DNA of 24,000 bases from an uncultured Alphaproteobacteria bacterium (GTDB taxonomy: Bacteria > Pseudomonadota > Alphaproteobacteria > Rhodospirillales > Rhodospirillaceae): contig LT599022.1 in NCBI GenBank assembly GCA_900079695.1, forward strand, positions 142,222 through 166,221, written 5' to 3'. This document shows, one piece after another, positions 1,221-17,490 of the stretch. Made by a program: the position numbers and the translations under genes. The notes under the pieces are model-generated. The model saw only the letters and a program-made list of their open reading frames with translations, did no database searches and was not told the origin of the DNA. Every line of letters begins with the position of its first letter. Position 1 is the stretch's first letter.

Positions 1221-1357
1221 ACCTTCCCGTAAGCGTCAACGGATGAACGTATCAAAGCAAAGAGTTTGGCCTCCAACGTCTGCGTCCGTCCCCTGGTGGT
1301 CCCCGGTGACCTGAATGGGGAATGATACACAGCAGGCCGAGAATGGCATTATGTCGT

Positions 1358-1381: not shown

Positions 1382-1545
1382 ATTTTTCGACATCGCGGAG
1401 CATCGCCAGAGCTCCGACCCCTGTGCATAAGTTGACATATTCGACGTATCGTTATGGTGTTAGTGTTATCGAGCGCCACCATGAATGATGGCGGATCTAA
1501 ATCCATGCTTGTGACGTACCTTAGGGAAAATAGGGGGGAAGCGAG

Positions 1546-3119: not shown

Positions 3120-3132
3120 GCGACCTCCTATC

Positions 3133-3468
3133 TCACTGCGGTGCGCTGCCCGACGAACGGGCTTGTGCGGCTTCGGATGCAAAGGCATTTACCAAACGAG
3201 ATAATGCCGATCGCACAGGTCCTAACTTCGGGTCATCCAGGGATTCGCGCACGAGGTCAGCCAATTGTTCCGCTGATGGAGCCGTCTCGCTTTCAGTGGC
3301 ATGCACCAGACGCATACAGCGGTTGATGACGCTGATCGGCGGGCTGGCCTTGCCCCGCTCGTACTTGCTCACCATCGACTGATCAACCTCAAGCAAAGCA
3401 GCTAATTCCCTCTGGCTGCGCCCCTTACGTGCCGCCCGGATGATCTCTTCAACGCTGTTGAAGACCAT
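3133..3468 (-). CDS. XRE-family helix-turn-helix transcriptional regulator
   Basis: 111 aa. The HTH_3-type segment is RSQRELAALLEVDQSMVSKYERGKASPP. ATG at 3468. The stop lies 13 nt upstream of the DUF5131 start, so the two are probably co-transcribed. Confidence 0.85.
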   Translation of the reverse strand: MVFNSVEEIIRAARKGRSQRELAALLEVDQSMVSKYERGKASPPISVINRCMRLVHATESETAPSAEQLADLVRESLDDPKLGPVRSALSRLVNAFASEAAQARSSGSAPQ

Positions 3469-3545
3469 GTTCTTGCCACCACAAAAATTCGTTTGCAGAA
3501 TATTTTATCCATTTTATGCGCCTGATGCCTAGAAAAATTTCTCCA
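3469..3545 (-). promoter_or_regulatory. AT-rich upstream region of the XRE-DUF5131 operon with tandem ATTTTAT half-sites
   Basis: This is the most AT-rich stretch near these genes. ATTTTAT occurs at 3502-3508 and 3511-3517 (9-bp register). I could not assign convincing -35/-10 hexamers. Confidence 0.35.
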
Positions 3546-3588
3546 GGACGCGTCCCGATCTGCAGGGAGAGTGGCCCTCCGTCACTCA

Positions 3589-3655
3589 GGCCTAAGGGGC
3601 TCGCGCCCCTCGCGCGGGGAAGGGCCGAGCGCCGCTTCGCGTCGTGAGGGGGCGG
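3589..3655. repeat. GC-rich 67-bp repeat, copy B (direct repeat with 1154-1220)
   Basis: ggcctaaggggctcgcgcccctcgcgcggggaagggccgagcgccgcttcgcgtcgtgagggggcgg; 62 of 67 identical to copy A. Together the two copies bracket the lower-G+C tcmP/DUF5131/XRE segment. Confidence 0.85.
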
Positions 3656-3718
3656 GTCTCCCCGCCCTTCCTCCGCTGCGCTCCGTGCAGGGCGGGGGAT
3701 ACCCCTCCCGCCCCCTCA
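3645..3718. repeat. 12-bp inverted repeat tgagggggcggg / cccgccccctca separated by 50 bp
   Basis: 3645-3656 is the exact reverse complement of 3707-3718. The left arm is the end of repeat copy B. The element lies in the leader of the methyltransferase gene. Confidence 0.7.
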
Positions 3719-3784
3719 GCCCTTCCCCTTGCTACCCCCGATGAAGACGACGGGAAAAGGTTCACCAGTCAGGGGATAGCAGCC

Positions 3785-5218
3785 ATGCACACCGCTTCCG
3801 ACCTCATTCCGCGCCAGACTGTCACCCAGATCTGCGCACAGCGCGACAACGCCCTCGCGCTCTATGGTCGCGCGTTCGACGCCCTCGGCATCGCCAGCGA
3901 CGCATTCGCCGCCGCCGCCAAGGCCGTAACCGCCGCGTCGCCCGCGAACGGCAACGCCTACACCTATCCCTCCGAAGAGGCCCGCAAGCTTTTCCTCGCC
4001 GGGATCCAGCTTCCCGATCCGGACACTTTCCGCGATGCCGCCCGCCGCCTCACCGACGCCGCCGTGTGGGGGCGGATCATGGAGATGACCGACCTGGAGC
4101 GGCTGATGGACAAGACCGCGAAGGACAACTTCCGCCGCCAACTCACCACCGAACCGCCCGAGGTGACGGAGGGCAACGTGCGGGCGACGCTCGAAGAGAT
4201 GGCGCTGAACGCCGGAACCATCTTCCGGCGCGGGATCGCCACCGTGTTCTCCAACCTCGATCGCCGCTTCCGCAGCCACGACGGATGGAGGATCGGCAGC
4301 CGCGTCATCCTCTCCAACGCCTTCGACGACTTCGGCCACTGGAACCACTACCGCAATCACCGCGACACGCTGACCGACATCGAGCGGACGTTCTTCGTTC
4401 TCGACGGCCGCAAGCAGCCCGAGAGCTATGCGGGCGTCGTCGCCACCATCGACCAGGACCGGCGGCAGCACTGGCGCGCGCATCAGTCCGAGTGCGAAAC
4501 CGAGTTCTTTACGGTTCGGTGCTTCAAGAACGGCAACTTGCATGTCTGGTTCAAGCGCGGCGACCTGGTTAGCCAGGTCAACCGGCTGATCGGGGAATAC
4601 TACGGCGCACCGATCCCCGAGGATCGCGAGTCCGAAGACGACGGCGACCTGTTCACGCCGAAGACCACACCCGCCCGCAACTTCGGTTTCTTCCCGACGC
4701 CCGACGGTGCGGCCGAGCGGCTGTTCGATCGTTTTCCGCTCCGGCACGCCAAAGACGAACCGGCGCTGACCTTGTTGGAGCCGAGCGCGGGCACCGGCAA
4801 CCTCGCGCGCCGCGCCGTCGCGGCCGGGGCGGTCGTGGATTGCATCGAGATCCAGGGGAGCCTTGCCCAGGGTCTTCGAGGCGAGGGCATCTATCGCAAC
4901 GTCGTCGCCGCCGACTTCCTGGCGCTCAAGCCGAACCCGGCGGCGCTGTACGATCGCGTGGCGATGAATCCGCCCTTCGACCGAGAGCGCGACATCGACC
5001 ATGTGATGCACGCGCTGACCTTCCTGAAACCGGGCGGCATCCTCACCGCGATCATGTCGGCCGGCACCGAGTTTCGCGAGACGCGCAAGAGCAAGGCGTT
5101 CCGTGCGCTGATGGCGGAGATGCGGGCGGAGTGGTCCGACCTTCCCGACGGGTCGTTCTCTTCGGTCGGGACGAACGTCAACACGATCGTTCTTAAGGTC
5201 AGGAAGGGGGCAGCTTAG
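3785..5218 (+). CDS. SAM-dependent DNA (amino, NPPF-type) methyltransferase with ~290-aa N-terminal non-MTase domain (DUF4942-like by recollection)
   Basis: The frame is open from 3644, but those extra 47 codons are encoded by the GC-rich repeat. ATG at 3785 with AGGGGA upstream is preferred. The C-terminal part has motif I LEPSAGTGNL and motif IV NPPF. No adjacent restriction endonuclease gene is visible. Confidence 0.85.
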   Translation: MHTASDLIPRQTVTQICAQRDNALALYGRAFDALGIASDAFAAAAKAVTAASPANGNAYTYPSEEARKLFLAGIQLPDPDTFRDAARRLTDAAVWGRIMEMTDLERLMDKTAKDNFRRQLTTEPPEVTEGNVRATLEEMALNAGTIFRRGIATVFSNLDRRFRSHDGWRIGSRVILSNAFDDFGHWNHYRNHRDTLTDIERTFFVLDGRKQPESYAGVVATIDQDRRQHWRAHQSECETEFFTVRCFKNGNLHVWFKRGDLVSQVNRLIGEYYGAPIPEDRESEDDGDLFTPKTTPARNFGFFPTPDGAAERLFDRFPLRHAKDEPALTLLEPSAGTGNLARRAVAAGAVVDCIEIQGSLAQGLRGEGIYRNVVAADFLALKPNPAALYDRVAMNPPFDRERDIDHVMHALTFLKPGGILTAIMSAGTEFRETRKSKAFRALMAEMRAEWSDLPDGSFSSVGTNVNTIVLKVRKGAA

Positions 5219-5221
5219 GCC
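5018..5221. repeat. ~204-bp direct repeat, copy 1 (functional 3' end of the methyltransferase gene)
   Basis: Aligns with 6123-6327 with about 11 substitutions and one 1-nt indel by manual alignment. Includes the TAG stop at 5216-5218. Confidence 0.9.
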
Positions 5222-5307
5222 CCTCATATTCATGCTCTGTGTTTCGGCTTCCTTCTCCCCACGGATGCCCAGGATAGACATCCGGCAACCGAGATGTTGT
5301 GTTCAAA

Positions 5308-5356
5308 ATACACACTATCGTTGACTTCCCAAGAAACAGTGTGTATGTTATACACA
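5308..5356 (+). promoter_or_regulatory. hicAB promoter with operator-like inverted repeat
   Basis: TTGACT (5321-5326), 17-nt spacer, TATGTT (5344-5349). The 9-bp inverted repeat atacacact (5308-5316) / agtgtgtat (5338-5346) brackets the -35 and overlaps the -10. A third ATACACA half-site is at 5350-5356. Confidence 0.55.
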
Positions 5357-5374
5357 ATGTATGCGGAGTCAATT

Positions 5375-5578
5375 ATGTCGCCGAAACGCACCCCAGAGAC
5401 ACCCGAAGCCATCCGGAAGCGCCTTCTCGCCGATGGATGGACGGAGCGGAAGGGCAAAGGCGACCACCGGAATTTTCGCAAACCGGGTCATCACGTCGTA
5501 ACCGTGGACATGGGTGTACGCGAAATTCCATCCAGGACGCTCCGGAACATCTATCGTGTCGCGGGGTGGGTGTGGTGA
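5375..5578 (+). CDS. hicA: HicA-family mRNA interferase toxin
   Basis: ATG at 5375 with GGAG at 5365-5368. 67 aa. LLADGWTERKGKGDHRNFRKPGHHVVTVDMGVREIPSRTLRNIYRVAGW fits the HicA/YcfA pattern, including the conserved His. Confidence 0.85.
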   Translation: MSPKRTPETPEAIRKRLLADGWTERKGKGDHRNFRKPGHHVVTVDMGVREIPSRTLRNIYRVAGWVW

Positions 5579-5604
5579 GCGGCCGCCAGCTTGAGGAGAG
5601 TGCC

Positions 5605-6009
5605 ATGGCTACTGTGATTGCCTTGATCCATCGTGACGAAGGATCGGACTACGGCATCAGCTTCCCCGACTTCCCGGGGTGCGTCTCCGGCGGGGCGACC
5701 CTGGAAGACGCCTTCCGGCGCGGGCGCGAGACGCTGGCGGCGCATGTGGAGGCTCTGGTGGAGGATGACGAGGGATTGCCTGCCGTGCGCAGCCTCGACG
5801 CCCTCAAGGCTGACCTGGCGTTGGCCGAGGATTTCGCCGACGCGGAATTGATCGGAGCCATCGAGGTTGAGCTTCCGGGCAAGTCCAAGCGCATCAACGT
5901 GTCATTGGAAGAGCGGCTGTTGGAGCGGATCGACCGACGCGCGCAGAGCCTTGGGCTCAATCGGTCCGCATATCTTGCCGAAGCGGCGCGGCGCGAGATG
6001 GGGGGGTGA
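5605..6009 (+). CDS. hicB: HicB-family antitoxin with C-terminal ribbon-helix-helix
   Basis: ATG at 5605 with GAGGAG at 5593-5598. The N-terminus ALIHRDEGSDYGISFPDFPGCVSGGATLEDAFRRGRETL is HicB-like. The C-terminus KRINVSLEERLLERIDRRAQSLGLNRSAYLAEAARREM is CopG/RHH-like. Confidence 0.85.
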   Translation: MATVIALIHRDEGSDYGISFPDFPGCVSGGATLEDAFRRGRETLAAHVEALVEDDEGLPAVRSLDALKADLALAEDFADAELIGAIEVELPGKSKRINVSLEERLLERIDRRAQSLGLNRSAYLAEAARREMGG

Positions 6010-6122
6010 ATTGCTCCTGGAGCGGCGTTCCCGTCGCGTCATATACCCACGCAACTATGCCCCCGACTTCGTTGCCAGATTCGCCTGACTTCCAGCCATT
6101 TCGCCGCCTGACCCGGGTGTCA

Positions 6123-6324
6123 ACCTTCCTGAGGCCGGGCGGCGTTCTCACCGCGATCAATGTCGGTCGGCACCGAGTTCCGCGAGACGCGCAAGAGCAA
6201 GGCGTTCCGTGCGCTGATGGCGGAGATGCGGGCGGAGTGGTCCGGCCTTCCCGACGGATCGTTCTCCTCGGTCGGGACGAACGTCAACACGATCGTTCTC
6301 AAGGTCAGGAAGGGGGCAGCTTAG
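6123..6324 (+). pseudogene. Relic 3' fragment of the methyltransferase gene (copy 2 of the ~204-bp repeat), frameshifted
   Basis: Matches 5018-5218 but has an extra A (atcaatgtcgg versus atcatgtcgg). This breaks the frame relative to TFLRPGGVLTAI. There is no methyltransferase homology upstream of 6123. It ends at the equivalent TAG (6322-6324). Confidence 0.8.
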
Positions 6325-6337
6325 GCCGCCCTGCGTG

Positions 6338-6349
6338 CCCCCCCCCCCC
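6338..6349. repeat. Homopolymeric C12 tract
   Basis: Twelve consecutive C residues at 6338-6349. They lie between the methyltransferase relic and the ORF at 6428. Confidence 0.95.
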
Positions 6350-6427
6350 AGGCTTGTTTCCGGATAATCCCTTGACCGGCCGCGGAGCGCGAGCTTCATT
6401 TGCTCAAGAGGACGAGGAAGGCCGCTT

Positions 6428-6634
6428 ATGATCGAGACGCGCATCTGGAATGCCATCGACCACCTCGACACCCTCGAGGCGATCGCGGCCTACCTGCACG
6501 CCGCCATGGAGGACGGAGACCTCAGGCTGATCGACGCCGCGCTCGCAGATATCGCTCGCGCCCTTGGCGTAGGCGACGGCCTCGCGCATTCCCTGAACGA
6601 TCTTGTTAACCATGGCGCTGGCCCTCGCGACTGA
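6428..6634 (+). pseudogene. Truncated addiction-module antidote (TIGR02684-like) remnant, HTH region lost
   Basis: The 68-aa ORF contains LEAIAAYLHAAMEDGDLRLIDAALADIARALG. This matches the conserved N-terminal half of that antidote family as I recall it (..EAIAAYLNAALE.GDP.L...ALGDIARA.G). The sequence then diverges and stops where the HTH should be. No cognate upstream toxin gene is present. Confidence 0.5.
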
Positions 6635-6650
6635 GCTGTATTCGGCTAAC

Positions 6651-6680
6651 GATGTTATTTAATCATGATTAAATGACATC
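6651..6680. repeat. 30-bp near-perfect palindrome GATGTTATTTAATCATGATTAAATGACATC
   Basis: 13-bp arms around a CATG core. There is a single mismatched pair (T6/G25, which would be a G-U pair in RNA). The inner 18 bp (6657-6674) are a perfect palindrome. No T-run follows. Confidence 0.8.
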
Positions 6681-6834
6681 GTAGCACATTGCCCGTCAAC
6701 GTCCGCAACCACCCCCTTCAGGGCGCCGATTGAGCGTCATTTCCGGCAATGCGTAACGCTTATCTGTTTCCGTTCAGGCAACTCACGCTGGCGCCACACC
6801 GAGGGCTCAGGTTTCGCCGATAGCGATTCCCTGC

Positions 6835-6863
6835 TTGACACAGAATTCGCTGTCAGCGAATAT
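6835..6863 (+). promoter_or_regulatory. Candidate sigma70-type promoter for the relE-like/antitoxin operon
   Basis: TTGACA (6835-6840), 17-nt spacer, GAATAT (6858-6863), with alternative AT-rich -10 hexamers just downstream. It lies ~25-50 nt upstream of the ATG at 6886. Confidence 0.45.
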
Positions 6864-6885
6864 ACGGCATCGGGCGGGGGCGTGA

Positions 6886-7143
6886 ATGCGGATCGAATAC
6901 GAGACGAAGGCGATCAAGGACCTGAAGGCCATTACATCGGCTGATCGGGCTCGCATCATCGGGAAGATCGAGCAGTACGCCAAGTCCCCGCACAGCCTCG
7001 CCAATCAGGTGAAACACCTTGTGGGCTCGCCGTTTCATCGACTTCGGGTCGGCGATTATCGGGTGATTTTCTCGCTTACGGAAGAGGCTGTCGCGATCAT
7101 GGTGGTGATCCGTGTCAGACATCGGAGGGAAGCCTATGACTAA
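6886..7143 (+). CDS. RelE/ParE-superfamily type II toxin
   Basis: 85 aa. IEYETKAIKDLKAI...RARIIGKIEQYA...HLVGSPFHRLRVGDYRVIFSL..EAVAIMVVIRVRHRREAY is the typical RelE/StbE pattern. Confidence 0.85.
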   Translation: MRIEYETKAIKDLKAITSADRARIIGKIEQYAKSPHSLANQVKHLVGSPFHRLRVGDYRVIFSLTEEAVAIMVVIRVRHRREAYD

Positions 7144-7462
7144 GACCGTGACGATTCCGCAGGAAGAGTACGATGCGCTTCTCGCCCGGGTCGAGGACCT
7201 GGACGATATTCTGGCAGCCAATGCCGCGATGACCGGCGCGAGGTTGCCGCACGAGTGCGCCATGCGCATCATCGACGGCCAACACCCCACGCGGGTGTGG
7301 CGCGAGTATCGTGGTTTCAGCGCGTTGGCGCTCGCGAAGAAATCCGGCGTGTCGCAGGCGTATCTCAGCGAGATTGAAACCGGGAAAAAGCCGGGCTCGG
7401 TGGAAGCCTACAAGGCCATAGCCGAGGCTTTGAGCGTGCCGTTGGATGCCGTCGTACCGTAA
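7136..7462 (+). CDS. XRE-family HTH antitoxin (downstream of toxin, HigA-like arrangement)
   Basis: ATG at 7136 with GGAGGGA at 7124-7130. It overlaps the toxin stop (ATGACTAA). The C-terminal HTH is FSALALAKKSGVSQAYLSEIETGKKPGSVEAYKAIAEAL. Confidence 0.8.
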   Translation: MTKTVTIPQEEYDALLARVEDLDDILAANAAMTGARLPHECAMRIIDGQHPTRVWREYRGFSALALAKKSGVSQAYLSEIETGKKPGSVEAYKAIAEALSVPLDAVVP

Positions 7463-7530
7463 GGGGGCAACATGCCGGATCTCGATTTCTCCAGGGCGGA
7501 GCCCCTGGTCTTGCAGGCGGAGCGCGAGCC

Positions 7531-8226
7531 ATGGTGATCGAACTCACCGATGTGGCGATCCGGCGCGGCGGCAAGGGCGGGTTTCTGATGTCGGTGCCGA
7601 AGTTCGCGGTGGCGGCGGGGGAGGCGGTGGCGATCACCGGCGCGTCGGGCAGCGGCAAGAGCACGGTGCTGGATGCGTTGGGACTGGTGTTGCGGCCGGA
7701 GGCGGCGGCCGGGTTCCGCTGTTGCGGCGCGGATGCGGCGACGCTGTGGCGGGCGGACGATCTCGACGGTCTGGCGGCGGCGCGTGCGGCGGGGATCGGC
7801 TACATCCTCCAAACCGGCGGGTTGCTGCCGTTCCTGAGCGTGCGGGAGAATATCGGCCTATCCCCGTCGCTGCTGGGGCAGAAGGATTTCGCGCGGCACG
7901 TCGCGATGCTGGTGGAGGCGCTGGGGCTGGGGCCGCACCTCGCCAAGATGCCCGCACAGCTTTCGATCGGCGAACGCCAGCGCGCGGCGATCGCCCGCGC
8001 CCTGGCGCACCGCCCGGCGCTGCTGCTGGCCGACGAGCCGACCGCCTCGCTCGATCCGGTGAACGCGGGCAAGGTGCTCGACCTGCTGCTCGGTCTGGTG
8101 AAGGGGCTCGGCACCGCGCTGGTGCTGGTGAGCCACGACTGGTCGAAGGTCGCGAGCCTGGGCCTCCGGCGCTACGCCACCGCCAGCGCGACCGCGGGCG
8201 GCTGGCTGGCGGAGGTGGCGTCATGA
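7531..8226 (+). CDS. ABC transporter ATP-binding protein (LolD/MacB/FtsE-like)
   Basis: Walker A GASGSGKST, Q-loop ILQTGG, signature LSIGERQR, Walker B LLLADEPT, H-loop LVSHD. GGAG lies 8 nt upstream of the ATG. Confidence 0.9.
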   Translation: MVIELTDVAIRRGGKGGFLMSVPKFAVAAGEAVAITGASGSGKSTVLDALGLVLRPEAAAGFRCCGADAATLWRADDLDGLAAARAAGIGYILQTGGLLPFLSVRENIGLSPSLLGQKDFARHVAMLVEALGLGPHLAKMPAQLSIGERQRAAIARALAHRPALLLADEPTASLDPVNAGKVLDLLLGLVKGLGTALVLVSHDWSKVASLGLRRYATASATAGGWLAEVAS

Positions 8227-9443
8227 AGCGGCGCGGCGCGGTTCAGGCGGCGCGGCTCGCGCTCGCCGACTTCCGGTTCGACGCACGGGTCTCGGCGTGT
8301 CTGGTGTTGGCGTTGGCGGCGGTGATGACGCCGCTGCTGGTGCTGTTCGGGTTGAAATACGGCATGGTCTCGACGTTGCAGCAGCGCCTGCTCGCCGACC
8401 CCACCAATCGCGAGATCGTCGTCGTCGGCAGCCAGCGCCTTGCGCCCGAGTGGTTCGAAAGCCTGCGGCAAAGCCGCGACGTCAGCTTCCTCGCGCCGCG
8501 TTCGCGCTCGCTTTCCGCCACGCTCGACGCCCGCGGGCCCGAGGGCGCGGCCTATCCGGGCCTGGAGATGGTGCCCTCGGCGGCGGGCGATCCGCTGTTG
8601 CCGTCGGGCGCGAAGCCGCCGACCGGAAACGCCGTGTGGCTCACCGCCACCGCCGCCCAGCGCCTCGGCGCGCGCCCGGGCGACACGGTGACGGCGCAGG
8701 TCGCCCGCACCCTCAACGGCGAAACCCAGGCGGCGCGCTTTCCGCTGACGGTCGCGGGGGTGATCCCGGAATCCGCGTTCGGCCGCGCCGCCGCGTTCGT
8801 CGCCGTCGAACTCCTGCTCGTCACCGAGGATTTTCGCGACGGCTACGCCGCCCCCGGGATCGGCTATGCCGCCGGAACCCCGCGCCCCGCCTCGCCGCCG
8901 CGCGCATTCGCGGGGCTGCGCCTTTATGCCGTCGATCTCGACGGTGTCGCGCCGCTCGCCGAGCGCCTGCGCAGCCAGGGCATGGAGGTGCGCACCCGCG
9001 CCGCCGAAATCGAGAACGTCAAGGCGATCGACCGGGTGCTGTCGCTCATCGTTCTCGTCATCGCCGCGATCGGCGCGACCGGCTTCCTCCTGTCGCTCGG
9101 GGCGTCGCTCTGGGCCAACGTCGAACGCAAGCGCCGCGATCTCGCGCTGATGCGCCTGATCGGCTTCTCTCCCGGCGCGGCGGCGCTGTTTCCCGCCGTC
9201 CAGGCGGTGCTGGTCGCCGTCCTCGGCGCCGCGCTTTCGGGCGTCGTCTATCTCGGCGTTTCCGCGCTGTTCGACCTTGCCCTCGGAGCCAATCTCGGCG
9301 CCAACGAATTCGTCACCCGCATGCCGGCGCTCCATTTCGCCGCCGCCTGCGCCGCCACCCTCGTCGCCGCGCTCGCCGCCGCCAGCTTCGCCGGACGTCG
9401 GGCGGCCACGGTCGATCCTGCGGAGAGTTTGCGCGATGTTTGA
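8223..9443 (+). CDS. FtsX/MacB-type ABC permease with large periplasmic domain
   Basis: The start ATG overlaps the ATPase stop (ATGA at 8223-8226). It has an N-terminal TM helix and a ~240-aa soluble region. The C-terminal FtsX-like TM bundle is IVLVIAAIGATGFLLSLGASLWANVERKRRDLALMRLIGFSPG... The longer ORF from 7446 was rejected. Confidence 0.85.
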   Translation: MKRRGAVQAARLALADFRFDARVSACLVLALAAVMTPLLVLFGLKYGMVSTLQQRLLADPTNREIVVVGSQRLAPEWFESLRQSRDVSFLAPRSRSLSATLDARGPEGAAYPGLEMVPSAAGDPLLPSGAKPPTGNAVWLTATAAQRLGARPGDTVTAQVARTLNGETQAARFPLTVAGVIPESAFGRAAAFVAVELLLVTEDFRDGYAAPGIGYAAGTPRPASPPRAFAGLRLYAVDLDGVAPLAERLRSQGMEVRTRAAEIENVKAIDRVLSLIVLVIAAIGATGFLLSLGASLWANVERKRRDLALMRLIGFSPGAAALFPAVQAVLVAVLGAALSGVVYLGVSALFDLALGANLGANEFVTRMPALHFAAACAATLVAALAAASFAGRRAATVDPAESLRDV

Positions 9444-11040
9444 GACGGAAAAGATGTTTCGGGTCTTCTATTCCTCCGCGAAGCGGGGCTCGAGGGCCTG
9501 CGGTTGGGGCGGAGCCCTGGCGGTGCTGTTGGCCTTGGCCGCGCCCGCCCTGGCCGACTGGGACGCGAAGCTCTTCAATCCGCAGGCGGCGAAGGACGAC
9601 GTGGTGCTGCCGATGCCGTGCGGCGGGGCGATGGCGTTCCGGCGGGTGGCGATTCCGGCGGAGGGTGCGCTCGGCGACCGCGCGGTGACGCTGGGGAGCG
9701 CGGCGGCGGAGCGGGGCTACGCGGAGGGACCGCGGCGCACCTGGGTGGCGGGCAGCCTGCCGGGCGGCAAGACCACCTCGGAGTACTGGATCGGCAAGTA
9801 CGAGGTGAGCGAGCTTCAGTACAAGGCGGTGATGGAGGAGACCTGCCCGACGGCGAACCTCGGCGGGCGGTTGGCCAAGGGCGGGGTGTCGTGGTTCGAC
9901 GCGGTCGCGTTTTCCGAACGTTACACCACGTGGCTGCTGAAGACCGCGGCGAAGAGCCTGCCGAAGAACGGGGACGAGCCCGGCTTCGTGCGCCTGCCGA
10001 CCGAGGACGAATGGGAGTTCGCGGCGCGCGGTGGCGCGGCGGTGGCGGACGCCGACTTTTCCGAGCCCGCGTTCCCGATGCCGGAGGGGATGGCGCGCTA
10101 CGTGTGGTTCGCGGGCACCCAGTCGGCCAACGGCAAGCCGCAGCTCACCGGGTTGTTGAAGCCCAATCCGCTGGGGGTCTACGACATCCTCGGCAACCTC
10201 GACGAGATCGCGTTCGCGCCGTTCCATTTGAACAAGCTCGGCCGCGCGCACGGCGCGGCGGGCGGTTTCGTGGTGCGGGGCGGCAACTATCTGACCGCGG
10301 AGTCGGACATTCGCGCCGCGGCGCGGGCGGAGGTGCCGTATTTCGACGCCGCCGGGCCGCGGCGGGCGAAGACCACCGGCTTTCGCGTCGTGGTCTCCGC
10401 GCCGGTGATCGGGGCGGCGGCGCAGTTGCAGGCGGCCCGGGCGGCGTGGGAGAAGCTCGGCGCATCCTCCGCGCCGGAGGCGTCGCCGCAGGCGGCGCTC
10501 GGCAAGCGCGCCGCGGACCCCGTGGCCGAGCTGGAGCAGATCGCCAAGGCCGCGCCGACGCCGGAGATGAAGGCGCGGCTGGAGCAGTTGCGCTCGGATT
10601 TGCGGGCGAACATCGCGGCGCGCGACGAGCAGCGCGACCGCGCGGCGAAGACCGCGCTGCGGATGGGCGCGTTCCTCGGCCGCAAGCTCAAGGACGACGG
10701 CCTCGCCATCGACACGCTGGCGAAGCTCGCCGAGGCGCAGAAGGCGCGCGATCCGAATTCGGAGCGGACCCGGGATTACCTCGCGGCGCTGCAGGCGGAT
10801 CAGGCGGCGATGGACGACAACCTGCGCTATTATGCGGATACCGTGATCCGTACCGCCGAGGACTACGGCGAGGATACCCTGACGCGCCAGCGGGAACTGC
10901 TGACCACGGAGCTCAAGGGGATCGGGCTCGGCGAGCTTGCGCCGTTCGTGGCTCTTCACCTGGAGCACGTCCTGACCTATCGTAAGGACATGCGCGTCAG
11001 CCGCGCGAAGTGGCTGAACGATTGGAAAACCCTGCACTGA
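9436..11040 (+). CDS. Secreted FGE-sulfatase/SUMF1-fold domain protein (non-catalytic variant) with ~210-aa helical C-terminal domain
   Basis: ATG at 9436 overlaps the permease stop (ATGTTTGA); an alternative ATG is at 9454. The signal peptide is GGALAVLLALAAPALA/DW. FGE-family blocks seen are YWIGKYEVSELQY, VSWFDAVAF, RLPTEDEWEFAARGG, NPLGVYDILGNLDE, RGGNY and TGFRVV. There are no Cys residues where the FGE catalytic Cys pair would lie. Confidence 0.8.
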   Translation: MFETEKMFRVFYSSAKRGSRACGWGGALAVLLALAAPALADWDAKLFNPQAAKDDVVLPMPCGGAMAFRRVAIPAEGALGDRAVTLGSAAAERGYAEGPRRTWVAGSLPGGKTTSEYWIGKYEVSELQYKAVMEETCPTANLGGRLAKGGVSWFDAVAFSERYTTWLLKTAAKSLPKNGDEPGFVRLPTEDEWEFAARGGAAVADADFSEPAFPMPEGMARYVWFAGTQSANGKPQLTGLLKPNPLGVYDILGNLDEIAFAPFHLNKLGRAHGAAGGFVVRGGNYLTAESDIRAAARAEVPYFDAAGPRRAKTTGFRVVVSAPVIGAAAQLQAARAAWEKLGASSAPEASPQAALGKRAADPVAELEQIAKAAPTPEMKARLEQLRSDLRANIAARDEQRDRAAKTALRMGAFLGRKLKDDGLAIDTLAKLAEAQKARDPNSERTRDYLAALQADQAAMDDNLRYYADTVIRTAEDYGEDTLTRQRELLTTELKGIGLGELAPFVALHLEHVLTYRKDMRVSRAKWLNDWKTLH

Positions 11041-11051
11041 CGCGGGCGAGG

Positions 11052-11756
11052 ATGATGAACAGCAAATTTTTCAAGGGCGTAGCTCTGGCGTCGGCGCTGC
11101 TGCTGGGCGCCTGCACCACCACCGGCAACGATACCGCCCGCACCCCGGCCGAGCAGAAGATGCGCGACCAGGCGGCCACCTTCAACACCACGGTGGCGGA
11201 GGGCGCGGTGACGGGTTGCGTGGTCGGCGCGATCATCGGCATCCTCGCCTCCAACCGCAACCACGGCTCCGGCGCGGCGATCGGCTGCGGCGCGGGCGCG
11301 GCGCTCGGCGGCGCCACCGGCTACATGGTGGCGAGCACGCAGGAGAAGTACGCCAACGAGGAGACGCGGCTCGATGCGATGACCGCCGACCTCAAGGCCG
11401 ACAACCAGCGCCTTGCCGGGCTGATCGACAGCAGCCGTCAGGTGATCGCCTCCGACAAGGCGGCGATCGAGAACCTCGACAAGCAGATCGCGGAGAAGAA
11501 GATCACCACCGCGCAGGCGCGCGCCGAAATTTCGAAGGTCGACGAGAACATCTCCTACCTCAAGCAGACGGTCGCGAACCTCAAGAAGCGCGAGGAGGAA
11601 TACAAGGTGGCGCGCGACAAGGCGGCGGCCGAGGCGGGCGCGCAGGCGGCGGCCGAGGTCGATGCGGAAATCTCGACGCTGCAAACCCAGATCGCCACGT
11701 TGGAGCAGGACCTCGACGGTCTGGTGACGCGGCGCAAGATTTCGCGAGTGGGGTAA
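11052..11756 (+). CDS. Lipoprotein with glycine-zipper segment and long coiled-coil tail
   Basis: Start ATG at 11052 or 11055. The lipobox is LLLGAC. The glycine zipper is GAVTGCVVGAIIGILASNRNHGSGAAIGCGAGAALGGATGY (Rick_17kDa/SlyB-like). The C-terminal ~130 aa look heptad-rich (DKAAIENLDKQIAEKK...TLQTQIATLEQDLD). Confidence 0.75.
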   Translation: MMNSKFFKGVALASALLLGACTTTGNDTARTPAEQKMRDQAATFNTTVAEGAVTGCVVGAIIGILASNRNHGSGAAIGCGAGAALGGATGYMVASTQEKYANEETRLDAMTADLKADNQRLAGLIDSSRQVIASDKAAIENLDKQIAEKKITTAQARAEISKVDENISYLKQTVANLKKREEEYKVARDKAAAEAGAQAAAEVDAEISTLQTQIATLEQDLDGLVTRRKISRVG

Positions 11757-11759
11757 GTC

Positions 11760-12242
11760 ATGAAGCTGTGGACGATCGCGGCGCTCGCCGCGCTGGTGGC
11801 CCTGGGCGGTTGCGCCCGCAACGAGGACCCGGCGAAGGGCGGGTTCTTCTCCGGCATCGCCAACATGTCGGACGGCACCTACGAGCGCCGTCAGCAGGAC
11901 CGCAAGGAGGCGCTGGAGAACGAGCAGGACATGAACCTGCAGAAGCAGCGCGAGCTCGAACGCACCAACGCGCAGAGAGACGCGGTGGCGGCGCAGCGGG
12001 CGCAGGTGGAATCCCAGGCGGCGGCGCTGGAGAGCGAGGTGTCGGCGCTCAAGGCGAAGCTTGCCAAGGCGAAGACCCAGCACGGCGATCTGCAGCGTCA
12101 GGCGGACGTTTTGCAGGCGAAGATCGACGTGCTGCAGCAGGATAGCTTCACTCCGCCCGCCGACAAGGCGGCGCGCCTCGACGCGTTGCGCAAGGAAAAG
12201 GCCGATCTCGAAAAGCAGATCGACACCGCGATCGGGCGGTGA
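11760..12242 (+). CDS. Coiled-coil lipoprotein
   Basis: ATG lies 3 nt after the previous stop. The signal peptide plus lipobox is AALVALGGC. The remainder is charged and Q/A/E/K-rich coiled coil (LESEVSALKAKLAKAKTQHGDLQRQADVLQAKIDVLQQD). Confidence 0.75.
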   Translation: MKLWTIAALAALVALGGCARNEDPAKGGFFSGIANMSDGTYERRQQDRKEALENEQDMNLQKQRELERTNAQRDAVAAQRAQVESQAAALESEVSALKAKLAKAKTQHGDLQRQADVLQAKIDVLQQDSFTPPADKAARLDALRKEKADLEKQIDTAIGR

Positions 12243-12285
12243 GGGCGGCGCGGCGGCCGGAGGCGGCGGTCGCGGGTTTCCGGCG

Positions 12286-13260
12286 TCAGAAGGTGTGGCT
12301 GCGGCGGATCACCGCCGCCGCCGCGTGGCCGGGGGCGAGCCGGGCGGCCTCCTCGGCCGGGAGTTCCGCCTCGATCCTGCGGCCGCCCGCGATCTCCAGT
12401 TCCACGTGGGCGCGCGGACCGGCGGCGCGCACCGCCACCACCGTGGCGGCGAGGCCGTGCGGCGCGCCGGGCGGCGCGATGCCGATCTCGTGGGCGCGCA
12501 CATAGGCGACGCCTTCGGGGGTGTCGACGCGGTTGACCGATCCCAGAAACTCGCAGACGAACGGCGTCGCCGGGTGGGCGTAGAGCTCGGCGGGCGGCGC
12601 GATCTGTTCGAGCCTGCCGCCGTCGATCACCGCGACCCGGTCGGCGAGCTCCAGCGCTTCCTCCTGATCGTGGGTGACGAACAGGGTGGTGTGGCCGGTG
12701 CGGTCGTGGAGTTCGCGCAGCCAGCGCCGCAGTTCCTTGCGCACCCGCGCGTCGAGCGCGCCGAAGGGCTCGTCGAGCAGCAGCACGCCCGGATCGATGG
12801 CGAGGGCGCGGGCCAGCGCGACGCGCTGGCGCTGGCCGCCGGAAAGCTGCGCCGGATACCGGGCCTCGAAGCCTTCGAGATGGACGAGCCGCAACAGCTC
12901 GCGGGCGCGGCGGCGGATCTCGGCCTTGGGCGGGCGGGTGGCGCGCGGCCGCACCGAGAGGCCGAAGCCGACGTTGGCCTCCACCGTCATGGTGCGGAAC
13001 AGCGCATAGTGCTGGAACACGAAGCCGACGTTGCGGTCGCGCGCGTCGCGCCCGGCGACGTTTTCGCCGTCGAAGCGGATCTCGCCGCCTTCGAGGGTTT
13101 CGAGCCCGGCGATCGCGCGCAGGAGGGTGGTCTTGCCCGAGCCCGAGGGGCCGAGCAGCGCCACCAGTTCGCCGTCCGCCACCGTCATCGAGATGCCGTT
13201 GAGCGCCGGCCGCTCGCCGCCGGGGAAGGTCTTTACCGCGTTGTCGATGTCGATCCGCAT
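12286..13260 (-). CDS. cysA: Sulfate/thiosulfate ABC transporter ATP-binding protein CysA
   Basis: Walker [10 protein letters not shown], signature LSGGQRQR, Walker B LLLDEPF. It is the last gene of an sbp-cysT-cysW-cysA run. Confidence 0.9.
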
Positions 13261-13264
13261 GCGC

Positions 13265-14104
13265 CTATTTTCCGCTCAGGGCTTCGAGGCCCGACTTCAG
13301 CGCCAGGGTGAGGAGGGCCATCGCCGCCAACAGCGACGCCACCGCGAACGCGGCGACGAAGTTGTATTCGTTATAGAGGATTTCGATGTGCAGAGGCATG
13401 GTGTTGGTCAGTCCGCGCAGGTGGCCGGAGACCACCGACACCGCGCCGAATTCCCCCATCGCCCGCGCGTTGCACAGCAGCACGCCGTAGAGAGCCGCCC
13501 ATTTGACGTTGGGCAGGGTGACGCGGAAGAAGATCTGCCAGCCCGACGCGCCGAGGGTGCGCGCCACCTCCTCGTCGCCGCGGCCGAGCATCTCCATCGT
13601 CGGGATCAGTTCGCGCGCGACGAACGGCAGGGTCACGAACACCGTGGCGAGCACGATCCCCGGCACCGCGAAGATCACCTCGACGCCGTGGGCGGTGAGC
13701 CACGGACCGAGGAGACCGTGCGCGCCGAACAGCAGCACGTAGATCAGCCCGGCGATCACCGGCGATACCGAGAACGGCAGGTCGATGAGGGTGACGAGCA
13801 CGCTCTTGCCGGGGAAGTCGAACTTGGTCACCGCCCACGCGGCGGCGATGCCGAAAACGAGGTTGGCCGCTACCGAGACGGCGGCTACCAGCAGGGTGAG
13901 GCGGATCGCCGCCAATGCGTCGGGATCGGCGAGGCCTTCGGCGAACGCCGTCCAGCCCTTGGCGAACGCCTCGGCGAACACCACGCCCAGCGGCAGCACC
14001 AGAAACAGTAGAACCACGGCGAGGGCGAAGGCGAGCAGAACGCGGCGGATCGCCGGAGCTTCGGCGACCCGCGGCGCGCGGCGCGGCCGGAGCAGAGCGG
14101 TCAT
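13265..14104 (-). CDS. cysW: Sulfate ABC transporter permease CysW
   Basis: This is the C-terminal 279 aa of the 901-aa track ORF. The ATG at 14104 overlaps the cysT stop (ATGA). It has typical CysW TM segments and the EAA-like loop [21 protein letters not shown]. Confidence 0.9.
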
Positions 14105-14928
14105 GTGCCGATTCTCCGGCGGTTCCATGCCTGCAGCAGGTTGAGCGCGAGCAGCAGGAGGAAGGCGATCGCCAGCATCGCGAGGGCGATCACCGCCGCG
14201 GCCGCGTCGTCGTGTTCCTCCAGGCGGATCGCGATCAGCAGCGGCGCGATCTCCGAGGCCATCGGCAGGTTGCCGGCGATGAAGATCACCGAGCCGTATT
14301 CGCCGATGCCGCGGGCGAGCGCCATCGCGAATCCGGCGAGCACCGCGGGCGCGATCAGCGGCAGGACGACGCGGCGGAAACTCTGCCCCCAGCGCGCGCC
14401 GAGGGATGCGGCGGCTTCCTCGACCTCGGCGTCGAGGGCCTCGAGCACCGGTTCGACGGCGCGCACCACGAACGGCAGGCCGACGAACACCAGCGCGACG
14501 ACGATGCCGAGCGGCGTGTACGCGACCTTGACCCCGAGCGGCGCGAGCAGCCGCCCGAGCCAGCCGTTCGGCGCGTAGAGGGCGGCGAGGGAGATTCCCG
14601 CCACCGCGGTGGGGAGCGCGAAGGGGAGATCGATCAGCGCATCCAGCAGCCGCCGCCCGGGAAAGTCGTAGCGCACCAGAACCCAGGCGAGCAGAGTGCC
14701 GAGCGCGGCGTTCGCCGCCGCCGCCGCGAGCGCCGCGCCGAGGCTGAGGCCGAGGGCGTGGAGGGTGCGCGGGTCGCCGACGATCGCCCAGGCGCGCGCG
14801 GCCGAAAGCCCGAGGGCGGTCGCCGGGATCATCGCCAGCGGCAGCAGTACCACCAGCGACAGATAGGCGAGCGTGACCCCGAGGGTCAGGCCGAAACCGG
14901 GTATCACCTTGGGCGATCGGGAGACCAT
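14101..14928 (-). CDS. cysT: Sulfate ABC transporter permease CysT (CysU)
   Basis: 275 aa. PGFGLTLGVTLAYLSLVVLLPL... and the EAA loop EEAAASLGARWGQSFRRVVLP are CysT-like. Confidence 0.9.
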   Translation of the reverse strand: MVSRSPKVIPGFGLTLGVTLAYLSLVVLLPLAMIPATALGLSAARAWAIVGDPRTLHALGLSLGAALAAAAANAALGTLLAWVLVRYDFPGRRLLDALIDLPFALPTAVAGISLAALYAPNGWLGRLLAPLGVKVAYTPLGIVVALVFVGLPFVVRAVEPVLEALDAEVEEAAASLGARWGQSFRRVVLPLIAPAVLAGFAMALARGIGEYGSVIFIAGNLPMASEIAPLLIAIRLEEHDDAAAAVIALAMLAIAFLLLLALNLLQAWNRRRIGT

Positions 14929-14931
14929 GCG

Positions 14932-15936
14932 TCAGCGCCTGCCGAAAACCTGATCGAAGACGCCGCCGTCGTCGAAGAACCGCTTCTGCGCCGTGCGCCA
15001 GTCGCCGAAACGGTCCTTGAGGGCGATCCGGCGAATCTCGGGGAAGCGCGCGAGGTCTTCCGGCGCGGCGAATTCCGGTCGAACCGGCCGGTAGAAGTGC
15101 TTCGCCGCGAGGCGCTGGCCCTCGGGCGCGTAGAGGAACGCGAGATACGCCTCCGCCGCCTTGCGGGTGCCGTGCTTGTCGGCGTTGGCGTCGACCAGCG
15201 CCACCGGCGGCTGCGCGAGGATGCTCATCGACGGCGCGACGATTTCGAAGTCGTTCCGCCCCAGTTCCTCGCGCGCGAGATGGGCTTCGTTCTCCCACGC
15301 CAGCAGCACGTCGCCGATGCCGCGCTTGGCGAAGGTGGTGGTGGCGCCGCGCGCGCCGGTATCGAGCACCGGCACGTTGCGGAACAGCGCGGCCATGTAG
15401 TCGCGCACCTTGGCGTCGTCGCGGTCGAAGGCGTCCTCCGCCCACGCCCACGCGGCGAGGAAGTTCCAGCGCGCGCCGCCCGAGGTCTTGGGGTTGGGGG
15501 TGATCACGCCGATCCCCGGTTTCGCGAGGTCGCCCCAGTCCTTGATCCCCTTCGGGTTGCCCTTGCGCACCAGGAACACCACGGTCGAGGTGTAGGGGGC
15601 GCTGTCGTTGGGCAGGCGGGTCTGCCAGTCCGGGGGCAGCGCCTTGCGGACGTCGGCGATGACGTCGACGTCGTAGGCGAGCGCGAGGGTGACGACGTCG
15701 GCCTCCAATCCGTCGATCACCGCGCGCGCCTGACGGCCGGAACCGCCGTGCGACATCCGCACCTGCACCGTCTCGCCGGTCTCGGCCTTCCACGCCTTGG
15801 CGAAGGCGGCGTTGACCTCGCGATAGAACTCGCGGGTGGGATCGTAGGAGACGTTGAGCAACGTCGTTTCGGCATGCGCCGCGGACCACGGCAGCGCGAA
15901 CAGAGCGACGGCGAACCAGATGCGCACGAGCTTCAT
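14932..15936 (-). CDS. sbp: Periplasmic sulfate/thiosulfate-binding protein
   Basis: ATG at 15936 with GGAGGGAGG upstream. The signal peptide is MKLVRIWFAVALFALPWSAAHA. TLLNVSYDPTREFYREVNAAF...HGGSGRQARAVIDGLEADVVTLALAYD is the Sbp/CysP pattern. Confidence 0.9.
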   Translation of the reverse strand: MKLVRIWFAVALFALPWSAAHAETTLLNVSYDPTREFYREVNAAFAKAWKAETGETVQVRMSHGGSGRQARAVIDGLEADVVTLALAYDVDVIADVRKALPPDWQTRLPNDSAPYTSTVVFLVRKGNPKGIKDWGDLAKPGIGVITPNPKTSGGARWNFLAAWAWAEDAFDRDDAKVRDYMAALFRNVPVLDTGARGATTTFAKRGIGDVLLAWENEAHLAREELGRNDFEIVAPSMSILAQPPVALVDANADKHGTRKAAEAYLAFLYAPEGQRLAAKHFYRPVRPEFAAPEDLARFPEIRRIALKDRFGDWRTAQKRFFDDGGVFDQVFGRR

Positions 15937-15978
15937 GGCCAAACCTCCCTCCCAAGGACGACGGCCGCACCTCGAACC

Positions 15979-16010
15979 GAACCGCAACGCACGAAGCCGG
16001 GTTGCGGTTC
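15979..16010 (-). other. GC-rich stem-loop (10-bp perfect stem, 12-nt loop) between the protease gene and sbp
   Basis: gaaccgcaac (15979-15988) pairs with gttgcggttc (16001-16010). It lies immediately downstream of the protease stop (16012-16014). No clear U-tract follows on the minus strand, so a terminator role is uncertain. Confidence 0.4.
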
Positions 16011-16011
16011 C

Positions 16012-16926
16012 CTAACGGCAGGGCGCGGCGGATACGGTGGGCCGCACGCCCCGTTCGGCGAGGAATCGCAACACGTCCTCGGCGGCGATGGCGTAGCCGG
16101 CATGGCTCGCCTGGTCGACCGAGACGCGGATGAAGGTGTTGATGCCGACCACGCGGCCGCAGGAATCCACCAGCGGTCCGCCGCTGTTGCCCGCCGAGAT
16201 CGCCGCCGAATGGGCGATGGTGGGCAGGCTGCTGCCGCGGTTCTGCACCGCCATGATGCTGCCCTGCGAGAGGATCAGGTCGGGCAGCCCGGTGGGGGTG
16301 CCGCGCAGCAGGCGCTGGAAGTGGATGTCGTTGTCGAGCAGCAGGCCGGGGAAGCCCGCGGCGATCACCGGTTCGAGTTCGGTCGCCTGCGCGGCGATCG
16401 GCAGCGTCGCCTTGGCCTTGGCTCCGGTGACGCGGAGGATTGCGTAGTCGCGCGCCTGAAGGCCGCCCTTGCCCGCCTCGACCGCCACTACCTGCGCCAT
16501 TTCCGCGCCGCCGACGCCGGGGCCGATCAGCGCGATCTTGCCGTTCGCGCCTTCGATCACGTGGGCGTTGGTGATGAGGGTGTCGGGAGTGACGAAAAAG
16601 CCGCTGCCGCTCGCCTCCGGGGTCAGCACCAGCACCACCGCCTGCTTCAGCCGCGCCACCAGTTGGTCGCGCGGCAGGGCCGCGTCGGCGGGCAGGGCCG
16701 CGCGTGCGGCGGCGGCGGTGGGCTTTTCCACGGCGGGTGCGGCGGAAGATTCGCCCGGCAGGCCCGCCTCCAACACCGCGCGTGCGGCGCGCGGATCGAG
16801 GCAGACGTCGCCCGCCAGCGTGGTTTCGAGCGCGTCGAGTCGGGCTTCGAGCTGCGCGCGGGTCGGTTCGGCGGCGGAAGCGGCGAAGGAAACCAGGCAG
16901 CAGGCGGCGACGATCAGGCGTTTCAT
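16012..16926 (-). CDS. Secreted trypsin-like (S1 family, DegP-like, no PDZ) serine protease
   Basis: The signal peptide is MKRLIVAACCLVSFAASA. The catalytic triad context is TNAHV (His), RDYAIL (Asp) and GNSGGPL (Ser). Confidence 0.8.
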   Translation of the reverse strand: MKRLIVAACCLVSFAASAAEPTRAQLEARLDALETTLAGDVCLDPRAARAVLEAGLPGESSAAPAVEKPTAAAARAALPADAALPRDQLVARLKQAVVLVLTPEASGSGFFVTPDTLITNAHVIEGANGKIALIGPGVGGAEMAQVVAVEAGKGGLQARDYAILRVTGAKAKATLPIAAQATELEPVIAAGFPGLLLDNDIHFQRLLRGTPTGLPDLILSQGSIMAVQNRGSSLPTIAHSAAISAGNSGGPLVDSCGRVVGINTFIRVSVDQASHAGYAIAAEDVLRFLAERGVRPTVSAAPCR

Positions 16927-16981
16927 TCCGGCGTATCCTCGGGGACGACGCGGGAATGATAACCCGGCGCGGCGGCGGCGG

Positions 16982-17419: not shown

Positions 17420-17459
17420 GGCGCGTCTCCGGAGGTTTGCTCCGGTGATACGCGCCATG

Positions 17460-17487
17460 TCCGCGCAGACTGGCGCGGAAATTTTCC
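17460..17487. other. Stem-loop tccgcgc-agactg-gcgcgga followed by AATTTTCC, just downstream of the GH4 stop
   Basis: 7-bp perfect stem (17460-17466 / 17473-17479). The T-run is on the plus strand only, so its role for the minus-strand genes is unclear. Confidence 0.3.
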
Positions 17488-17490
17488 GAA

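Follow-up and report, generated by a model that had tools for sequence, protein, structure and literature searches.

TagQRST (PA0070-PA0073) belongs to the threonine phosphorylation pathway of the H1 type VI secretion system (T6SS) of Pseudomonas aeruginosa, in which it acts upstream of PpkA, PppA and Fha1 (PMC13584744; PMC6657622). TagQ is a lipoprotein of the outer membrane, TagR is a periplasmic protein of COG1262, the family of the formylglycine-generating enzyme (FGE), TagS is a LolE-type permease (COG4591), and TagT is a LolD-type ATPase (COG1136) (PMC13584744). TagR is recruited by TagQ and forms the sensor core with it, TagS and TagT constituting an inner-membrane ATP-binding cassette (ABC) complex that has ATPase activity and a modulatory role (PMC6657622). 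According to a 2026 review, TagQRST has been studied in Pseudomonas only (PMC13584744). Two other sources place such genes next to srfABC: host-associated Desulfovibrio has tagQRST/ppkA-like genes beside it (Campbell et al. 2013, PMC3608642), and in H. parainfluenzae and X. stockiae it is flanked by a Lol-like ABC, a von Willebrand factor A (vWA) protein and a SUMF1-family enzyme (bioRxiv 10.64898/2026.09.18.752743). The DNA considered here is a stretch of 24,000 nucleotides of contig LT599022.1 from an uncultured alphaproteobacterium (the whole stretch is called the window). It contains, at positions 7531-12242, a five-gene cassette that is another member of this srfABC-associated, TagQRST-like group; the srf/TagQRST link was already noted in these two sources (2013, 2026). 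By analogy with P. aeruginosa, and with a probability of roughly 60%, the cassette would be a TagT/TagS/TagR/TagQ-like trans-envelope sensor module carrying one extra lipoprotein, and neither an exporter nor a defence system.

The five genes (g1 to g5) are the following.

7531-8226, plus strand: g1, ABC ATPase, TagT-like, 231 residues, with an ABC_tran domain and intact nucleotide-binding motifs.
8223-9443, plus strand: g2, FtsX/MacB-type (type VII ABC) permease, TagS-like, 406 residues, from a Pfam FtsX match and hydropathy.
9436-11040, plus strand: g3, secreted FGE-fold protein, TagR-like, 534 residues, from a Pfam FGE-sulfatase match.
11052-11756, plus strand: g4 (LP1), lipoprotein, TagQ-like, 234 residues, with a lipobox, a Gly-zipper and a distant VI_TagQ match.
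11760-12242, plus strand: g5 (LP2), second coiled-coil lipoprotein, 160 residues, with a lipobox and with homologues downstream of LP1 elsewhere.

Their co-directional arrangement at 7531-12242 was obtained from the list of open reading frames (ORFs) and by direct reading. A sequence-only reading of the window had described them as tightly coupled, and all its overlaps and gaps were reproduced: g1 and g2 share an ATGA overlap (8223-8226), g2 and g3 overlap by ATGTTTGA (9436-9443), the g3 stop (11038-11040) is separated by 11 nt from the g4 ATG at 11052, and the g4 stop (11754-11756) by 3 nt from the g5 ATG at 11760. The ABC/FtsX and FtsX/FGE start-stop codon overlaps are conserved in PGAP annotations of the Haematospirillum, Cereibacter and Tistrella plasmids. 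Because the cassette proteins have many homologues (E-values down to 0) and comparison with a relative of 98% identity gives each of the five genes a pN/pS ratio (non-synonymous over synonymous polymorphism) within 0.00-0.17, g1-g5 are real genes and not chance ORFs; the cassette is intact and under purifying selection. Other long ORFs overlapping them, at 7446-9443 (plus strand, 665 residues), 8172-9335 (minus), 9313-11037 (minus, 574 residues) and 10977-12083 (minus), were rejected as high-GC artefacts, homologues or domains being found for g1-g5 alone. The same reading was borne out on the export of the three downstream products (a signal peptide in g3, lipoboxes in g4 and g5) and on a single FtsX-type permease with a large periplasmic domain (about 215 residues after the first transmembrane segment). 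It was also right that no membrane-fusion protein, TolC, sulfatase or second such permease accompanies them, none being found in the window or among the called genes of its collinear relative L008.

The operon as such is sound in its genes and their coupling, but it is not a self-contained unit: g1-g5 make up only the distal half of a longer gene cluster that is itself conserved. The conserved order is (srfA-)srfB-srfC, a bitopic Sel1 protein, vWA, ABC, FtsX, FGE, LP1 and LP2, with the five genes last, and it was found complete in at least eight distinct loci of Alpha-, Beta- and Gammaproteobacteria. The neighbourhoods of g3 homologues were examined in ten loci with 46-98% identity, with confirmation by phmmer. 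SrfB, SrfC (PF10139), a Sel1 protein of about 350 residues and a vWA protein of about 660 residues precede the g1-g5 orthologues in L003, L005, L006, L007, L008/L009 and L010, which are metagenomic contigs of Alpha- or Gammaproteobacteria. A scan of species-representative genomes, in which eight family loci stood among the 80 loci listed, generic FGE-domain proteins dominating the list, added the full order in Castellaniella hirudinis (L013), the same order with no Sel1 gene detected in Pseudomonas guariconensis (L011), a cluster without LP1 and LP2 on a Pantoea plasmid, and short Desulfovibrio contigs bearing FtsX and FGE, or FGE alone. In an annotated plasmid collection, 125 plasmids carry relatives of g3, and Klebsiella accounts for 113 of these. 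The Haematospirillum jordaniae plasmid (L091) carries VWA, SrfA, SrfB, SrfC, TPR/Sel1, vWA, ABC, FtsX, FGE, LP1 and LP2, and the Cereibacter plasmid pORIO1 (L093) an srf-linked core without LP1 and LP2. The Klebsiella homologues are about 38% identical to g3. Conservation of synteny beyond close relatives, on which the sequence-only reading had staked its proposal, is strong: the same five genes recur in the same order across proteobacterial classes, and gene order combined with similarity establishes g1-g5 as orthologues of the last five genes of the srf cluster.

The examined Klebsiella IncFIB/IncHI1B plasmid (L092, NZ_CP015026.1 148589-162901) has the order SrfA-SrfB-SrfC-hypothetical protein-vWA-ABC-permease-FGE, with an unrelated secreted protein of 167 residues in place of LP1/LP2 and a gene with a tellurite-resistance domain upstream.

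The core also occurs in clusters linked to signalling genes. On the Tistrella mobilis plasmid pTM1 (L094), the order is tssJ-tssK-tssL-tssM-tagF-PP2C-STK-vWA-ABC-FtsX-FGE-hypothetical protein-vgrG, where STK denotes a serine/threonine kinase. Identity between Tistrella and the window reaches 51% for ABC, 40% for FtsX and 37% for FGE (residues 30-515, tail included), and the Tistrella vWA protein is 39% identical to that of L008. The Tabrizicola cluster (L014) reads LP1-LP2-VWA/FHA-FHA-PP2C-STK-trypsin/FHA-ABC-FtsX-FGE-STK-vWA and contains no srf genes. In a metagenome-assembled genome of Methylococcus, FGE-LP1-LP2 follow a CHASE2 histidine kinase, with no ABC genes. Between these clusters and the srf type, the cytoplasmic output domain of the transducer looks swapped; the transducers compared are the following.

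L008 4766-5884: Sel1 protein.
L094 8606-10033: kinase of Tistrella.
L014 11832-13202: kinase of Tabrizicola.

The srf-type Sel1 protein is bitopic, and the place of its transmembrane (TM) segment, around residue 150-206, varies with the species. BLASTP in a small database (E-values of 1e-7 to 1e-10) shows its TM and periplasmic part to be homologous to the C-terminal TM and periplasmic part of the kinases of Tistrella and Tabrizicola, and Sel1 proteins and kinases have the motif (M/F)YDP...SPF...YY..AA..G in common. Some clusters, thus, appear to couple to a kinase the same periplasmic apparatus that the srf clusters couple to a non-kinase domain of about 170 residues. Sequence comparison establishes homology, synteny and modular recombination with different cytoplasmic outputs. 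For the Sel1 part there is, in addition, a weak match to ExoR, a periplasmic regulator (23.5 bits).

The ATPase g1 scores 80.6 bits with Pfam ABC_tran, and all its motifs are intact (Walker A GASGSGKST, signature LSIGE, Walker B LLLADE, H-loop HD). Its top NCBIfam models are LolD, DevA, YbbA and FtsE, every one below its cut-off: LolD, the best-scoring ATPase model, gives 124.9 bits for a cut-off of 307.75, and FtsE 111.8 bits for 264.85. The MacB model (NCBIfam) gives 103.5 bits for a cut-off of 966. The permease g2 matches Pfam FtsX at residues 279-397 (31.1 bits) and MacB_PCD at residues 27-195 (23.2 bits, below the cut-off of 27). From hydropathy, TM1 spans residues 21-49, the periplasmic domain residues ~50-264, and three hydrophobic spans (TM2-4) residues ~265-391. 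NCBIfam FtsX_Gneg has no match in g2, and LolC (17.4 bits, cut-off 473) and lolCE (13.4 bits, cut-off 362) cover the TM region alone. Membership in LolCDE, MacAB, FtsEX or bacteriocin exporters was, therefore, rejected, every NCBIfam equivalog score being far below its cut-off; a placement of the pair in the first, second or last of these by hidden Markov models (HMMs) is what the sequence-only reading had said would count against its proposal.

A Lol-like or export apparatus has been the view taken of the srfABC flank in bioRxiv 10.64898/2026.09.18.752743. On that view the ATPase-permease pair would serve to release LP1 and LP2 from the inner membrane, or to process or export an SrfABC 'toxin', for example into vesicles, the FGE protein being a periplasmic maturation factor. 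Many genomes have the cassette and srfABC in one place, LolD is the top ATPase model, the permease gene has two lipoprotein genes in translational linkage with it, and the same source reports an HHpred likeness of the permease to LolC/LolE. Against this stand the LolC, LolCE and LolD scores given above, and the distribution of the parts: the core is found without srf genes in T6SS/kinase and FHA/PP2C clusters and without LP1/LP2 in Klebsiella, Cereibacter and Tistrella, and FGE-LP1-LP2 occur without any ABC genes in Methylococcus. The homologous ABC of P. aeruginosa is, moreover, described as a signalling component (PMC6657622). A Lol-like or export function is, on these grounds, unlikely, though it keeps more weight than the other rival readings.

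The third gene encodes a two-part protein behind a signal peptide (residues 1-40, the h-region ending A-L-A|D at residues 38-41).

9568-10410, plus strand: FGE-like domain of g3, residues ~45-325.
10561-11028, plus strand: helical, family-specific tail of g3, residues 376-531, from AlphaFold2 and a search with the tail alone.

Pfam FGE-sulfatase matches residues 112-319 with 99 bits. In the AlphaFold2 model (mean predicted local distance difference test score, pLDDT, of 77.5), the helical bundle at 376-531 has per-block pLDDT values of 84-98. Searched alone, the tail has 138 matches among 1.84 billion cluster representatives, always C-terminal in the full-length matches (proteins of about 500-725 residues); judged from these searches, it is a family-specific domain. 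The catalytic cysteine pair of true FGE follows an RGGS motif, as Cys336 and Cys341 in the human enzyme. Judged by the motif, and not by side-by-side alignment with a real FGE sequence, the corresponding segment after RGGNY is free of cysteine in g3 (RGGNYLTAESDIRAAARAEVPYFDAAGPRRAKTTGFR) and in family members L001-L012; the invariant cysteines of the family are C62 and C137 only. A regular-expression search of the fetched loci found no two-cysteine motif of true FGE. By sequence and fold, g3 comes closest, among solved proteins, to CarF, T. denticola TvpA and PorK/GldK, which are not known to be formylglycine-generating enzymes, and no true FGE structure is among the matches of g3 to solved structures at E <= 0.001.

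It could still be argued from the FGE-sulfatase score that g3 is a true enzyme, which makes formylglycine or another oxidative modification on a periplasmic Cys partner such as the C-terminal domain of SrfA; modification of SrfA-C is suggested in bioRxiv 10.64898/2026.09.18.752743. Given the missing cysteine in every family member examined, the identity of the closest solved relatives and the lack of a sulfatase gene in the window or related loci (L008 and the Haematospirillum plasmid included), this is very improbable. The FGE-like domain is probably a non-catalytic binding module.

Both lipoproteins combine a lipobox with a coiled coil. In g4, the lipobox is LGAC (Cys21), followed by a Gly-zipper at residues 49-93 (Pfam) and a coiled coil to the C-terminus; g5 has the lipobox LGGC (Cys18), a coiled coil, and a conserved N-terminal motif, DPxxGGFFxGI...GxYxxRQQ. 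The residues at position +2 after the lipidated cysteine are threonine (g4) and alanine (g5). By the E. coli +2 rule, outer-membrane sorting would be predicted for both, a rule that is not established in Alphaproteobacteria. The match of g4 to NCBIfam NF041250 (VI_TagQ) has an E-value of 1.8e-11 and 43.9 bits (cut-off 300) over model positions 48-184 of 301. VI_TagQ is also the model most often matched by the family, with 15 of 18 diverse LP1 members hitting it (best 2.9e-17), which points to LP1 being a distant relative of TagQ and not an equivalog. No protein named TagQ is among the matches listed (33 from g4; 246 from the 18-sequence LP1 profile). Homologues of LP2 lie downstream of LP1 in L001, L003, L005, L006, L007, L010, L011, L013, L014 and L091.

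Two further features of LP1 were observed. A C-terminal motif, ...RRK(I/V)SR(V/I)G or ...RSAITLG (in g4 at window ~11733-11753), is conserved in the LP1 proteins of Alpha-, Beta- and Gammaproteobacteria; a docking peptide is one role it could have. Some LP1 homologues (P0145, P0147, P0148) are longer, at 312-321 residues, and carry PG_binding_1 in precomputed Pfam annotation, which suggests that some versions contact the cell wall.

The coiled coils of g4 and g5, the long helical tail of g3 and the type VII ABC topology of g2 are also what an FtsEX-like activator would need, in which the permease, via the coiled-coil proteins, conformationally activates either the FGE-fold protein or some hydrolase or protease close by and so remodels the wall or envelope. 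PG_binding_1 in some LP1 homologues and a trypsin-like protease that recurs in or beside the cluster fit this picture. What speaks against it is that g3, g4 and g5 have no hydrolase domain, the FGE-like domain lacks the catalytic cysteines, the FtsE score of g1 and the missing FtsX_Gneg match of g2 give no sign of FtsEX, and no LytM/EnvC-like or amidase gene is present. Such an activator is, in consequence, distinctly improbable.

In the favoured sensor reading, LP1, located at the outer membrane and probably acting with LP2, would tether the non-catalytic FGE-fold protein there via coiled-coil contacts. Envelope perturbation would alter this tethering, and the FGE-like protein would then engage two partners in the periplasm, the vWA protein and the Sel1-like domain of the bitopic transducer. 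Through ATP-driven mechanotransmission, the pair of ABC ATPase and FtsX permease would set or reset the periplasmic complex, with no export of a substrate. The transducer would deliver its output through a cytoplasmic kinase in clusters of the T6SS/FHA type and, in the srf type, through the non-kinase domain of about 170 residues, presumably addressing SrfA/B/C. The sequence-only reading had already proposed that the ATPase and permease act on coiled-coil partners instead of exporting; this part agrees, by analogy, with what is known of TagQRST. The picture of a lone five-gene unit had to be given up. The same reading knew of no characterised system with this composition, but TagQRST has matching parts (PMC13584744; PMC6657622).

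Several points weigh against the sensor reading. The signal and mechanism of TagQRST are themselves unresolved (PMC7817224), so the analogy carries over an incomplete model. T6SS, kinase (PpkA), phosphatase (PppA) and FHA genes are not found in the window or in close relatives. The putative homology to the P. aeruginosa Tag proteins is drawn from the TagQ HMM (with a score far below its cut-off), shared COG/Pfam classes and the Tistrella bridge, and Gly-zipper plus coiled-coil composition may explain part of the TagQ match. Finally, the Klebsiella, Cereibacter and Tistrella versions have neither LP1 nor LP2, so that the lipoprotein-tether step cannot be universal.

A wider generalisation is possible, if doubtful. 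The vWA-ABC-FtsX-FGE(-LP1-LP2) set could be a portable, general envelope-damage sensor, with outputs through a swapped cytoplasmic domain of the transducer (STK or non-kinase) and through a histidine kinase instead in the minimal form. SrfABC would then be an effector arm for envelope stress, and TagQRST a specialised offshoot of a far larger family. The window would hold one of two halves, sensor and effector, parted by an island and both still under selection.

The island in question lies directly upstream of the cassette and accounts for the separation of g1-g5 from the srf genes.

1-7493, no strand, context only: island, delimited by a GC shift and by the lack of a counterpart in L008; its left end lies beyond the window.
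7494-7530, plus strand: native upstream remnant of 37 nt, from the island junction to the ATPase start, from pairwise alignment to L008 and blastn boundaries.
39-677: ORF with a nucleotidyltransferase domain (NTP_transf_2).
1546-2373: PDC-M41A-like ORF.
2370-3119, minus strand: DUF5131/PDC-M41B-like gene (E-value 8e-112).
3644-5218: DUF4942/mad2-like, methyltransferase-like gene.
Within 5299-6009: HicB-like antitoxin.
6428-6634: HI1420-type antidote fragment.
6886-7143: ParE toxin.
7112-7462: helix-turn-helix (HTH) antitoxin.

L008 is 98.3% identical to the window over 7494-21039, the homology beginning at window 7494 (L008 8059), and has srfB-srfC-Sel1-vWA directly upstream of the ATPase gene. 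No counterpart of window 1-7493 is found in L008, and the GC content is 53-66% in the island compared with 70-74% in the cassette. Because homology to L008 stops 37 nt before the ATPase start, window 1-7493 is an inserted island, a secondary insertion that exceeds 7.5 kb and has landed between the cassette and the vWA gene. Contiguity of these genes is the ancestral state, since vWA and ABC are contiguous or overlapping in more distant relatives. No srf, Sel1 or vWA gene is adjacent to the cassette within the window, in which the cassette is physically uncoupled from these partners.

The spacer between vWA and ABC is about 220 nt in this lineage (L008 7867-8095; L010 7872-8090, where an ORF of 72 residues is called); other genera have a 4-nt overlap of these genes instead. 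As the island landed in this spacer, the cassette may have formed a transcription unit of its own even before the insertion. The island genes are candidate defence and addiction genes; no integrase or tRNA was found in the window.

From the abutment of this toxin-antitoxin and modification island, the sequence-only reading had entertained a role of the cassette in envelope surveillance or defence. That the cassette belongs to the island, as part of phage defence or envelope surveillance, could be argued from its orientation, co-directional with the ParE/HTH module 68 nt away, and from the candidate defence genes. The 98%-identical relative that has no island, and whose cassette comes after srfB-srfC-Sel1-vWA, effectively refutes this view, which is further opposed by the sharp GC difference and by PADLOC, in which no defence family fits g1-g5 and the matches are generic P-loop or coiled-coil ones. 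It deserves next to no credence, and the abutment is functionally uninformative because the island is a secondary insertion.

Downstream and convergent to g5, a sulfate-type ABC importer operon occupies window 12286-15987 (minus strand), with a TOBE-domain ATPase, at least one BPD_transp_1 permease and a binding protein; the L008 gene calls show two permeases in this operon. It sits between the cassette and a trypsin-like serine protease gene, which was located as follows.

Window 16012-16926, minus strand: trypsin-like serine protease.
L010 12941-13843: trypsin-like serine protease.
L091 16705-17598: trypsin-like serine protease.
L093 2081-3949: trypsin-like serine protease.
L014 6624-7955: trypsin-like serine protease.

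Since the protease gene comes directly after LP2 in L010 and on the Haematospirillum plasmid, the importer operon gives the impression of an insertion or rearrangement specific to the lineage. The protease is convergent and downstream in L010 and Haematospirillum, lies upstream of an SrfA-like gene within the cluster in Cereibacter, and is fused to FHA in Tabrizicola. It may be a further functional partner.

TagQRST is the sole described device that reports where the bacterial envelope was just damaged. Its parts list is widespread in Alpha-, Beta- and Gammaproteobacteria, partly also in Desulfovibrio and, as a core without the lipoproteins, on Klebsiella plasmids, and is mostly wired to srfABC, the function of which has been unclear since 2000 and which is usually labelled 'virulence factor' or 'toxin'. 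Two questions, the signal of TagQRST and the function of SrfABC, gain here a common experimental handle. The finding in the window itself is modest, namely a cassette of a known but uncharacterised kind, present as an intact copy, which a mobile island has displaced and which is otherwise ordinary for its family. The family-level picture is more interesting, with one sensor core that is wired to SrfABC, a T6SS and kinase, an FHA/PP2C set or a histidine kinase; it is in the literature only in part.

Compared with known systems, the cassette resembles the type VII ABC systems (FtsEX-EnvC, LolCDE, MacAB-TolC) in its four-TM permease with a big periplasmic domain between TM1 and TM2, its partnered ATPase and its periplasmic coiled-coil partners, and differs from them in having no membrane-fusion protein, TolC, LolA/B-type or LytM/amidase partner. 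With respect to LolCDE/LolDF, the cut-offs of the LolC, LolE and LolD models are not reached by g2 and g1, and a LolA/B-type partner is lacking. MacB is a fused ATPase-permease, whereas here the two are separate genes, with no HlyD-type gene in the window or L008. For FtsEX, there is no FtsE or FtsX equivalog match, and g3-g5 have no LytM or hydrolase domain. True FGE differs by its catalytic cysteine pair, not present in g3, and by a sulfatase substrate gene, of which none lies nearby. PorK/GldK (of the type IX secretion system ring), TvpA and CarF are the closest solved matches of g3, in which the cysteine pair is missing; unlike them, g3 is not a lipoprotein, and it carries a C-terminal helical bundle of about 155 residues found in its family alone.

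The srfABC-associated cassette of PMC3608642 and bioRxiv 10.64898/2026.09.18.752743 is the same cluster as that of the window genes, with the difference that an island parts g1-g5 from the srf genes in the window. In the passages of these papers that were consulted, no mention is made of the two lipoproteins, the helical tail of the FGE protein or the kinase/Sel1 domain swap. With regard to TagQRST, the gene order here is T-S-R-Q, and Q-R-S-T in P. aeruginosa; a second lipoprotein (LP2) is present; the vWA protein and the transducer are separate proteins, as opposed to one PpkA; and the srf-type transducer has no kinase domain. The likeness lies in four protein classes that match g1-g4 (ATPase, permease, exported FGE protein and Gly-zipper-type lipoprotein), with g1-g3 having the class features of TagT, TagS and TagR, namely functional motifs, FtsX topology and an exported FGE domain.

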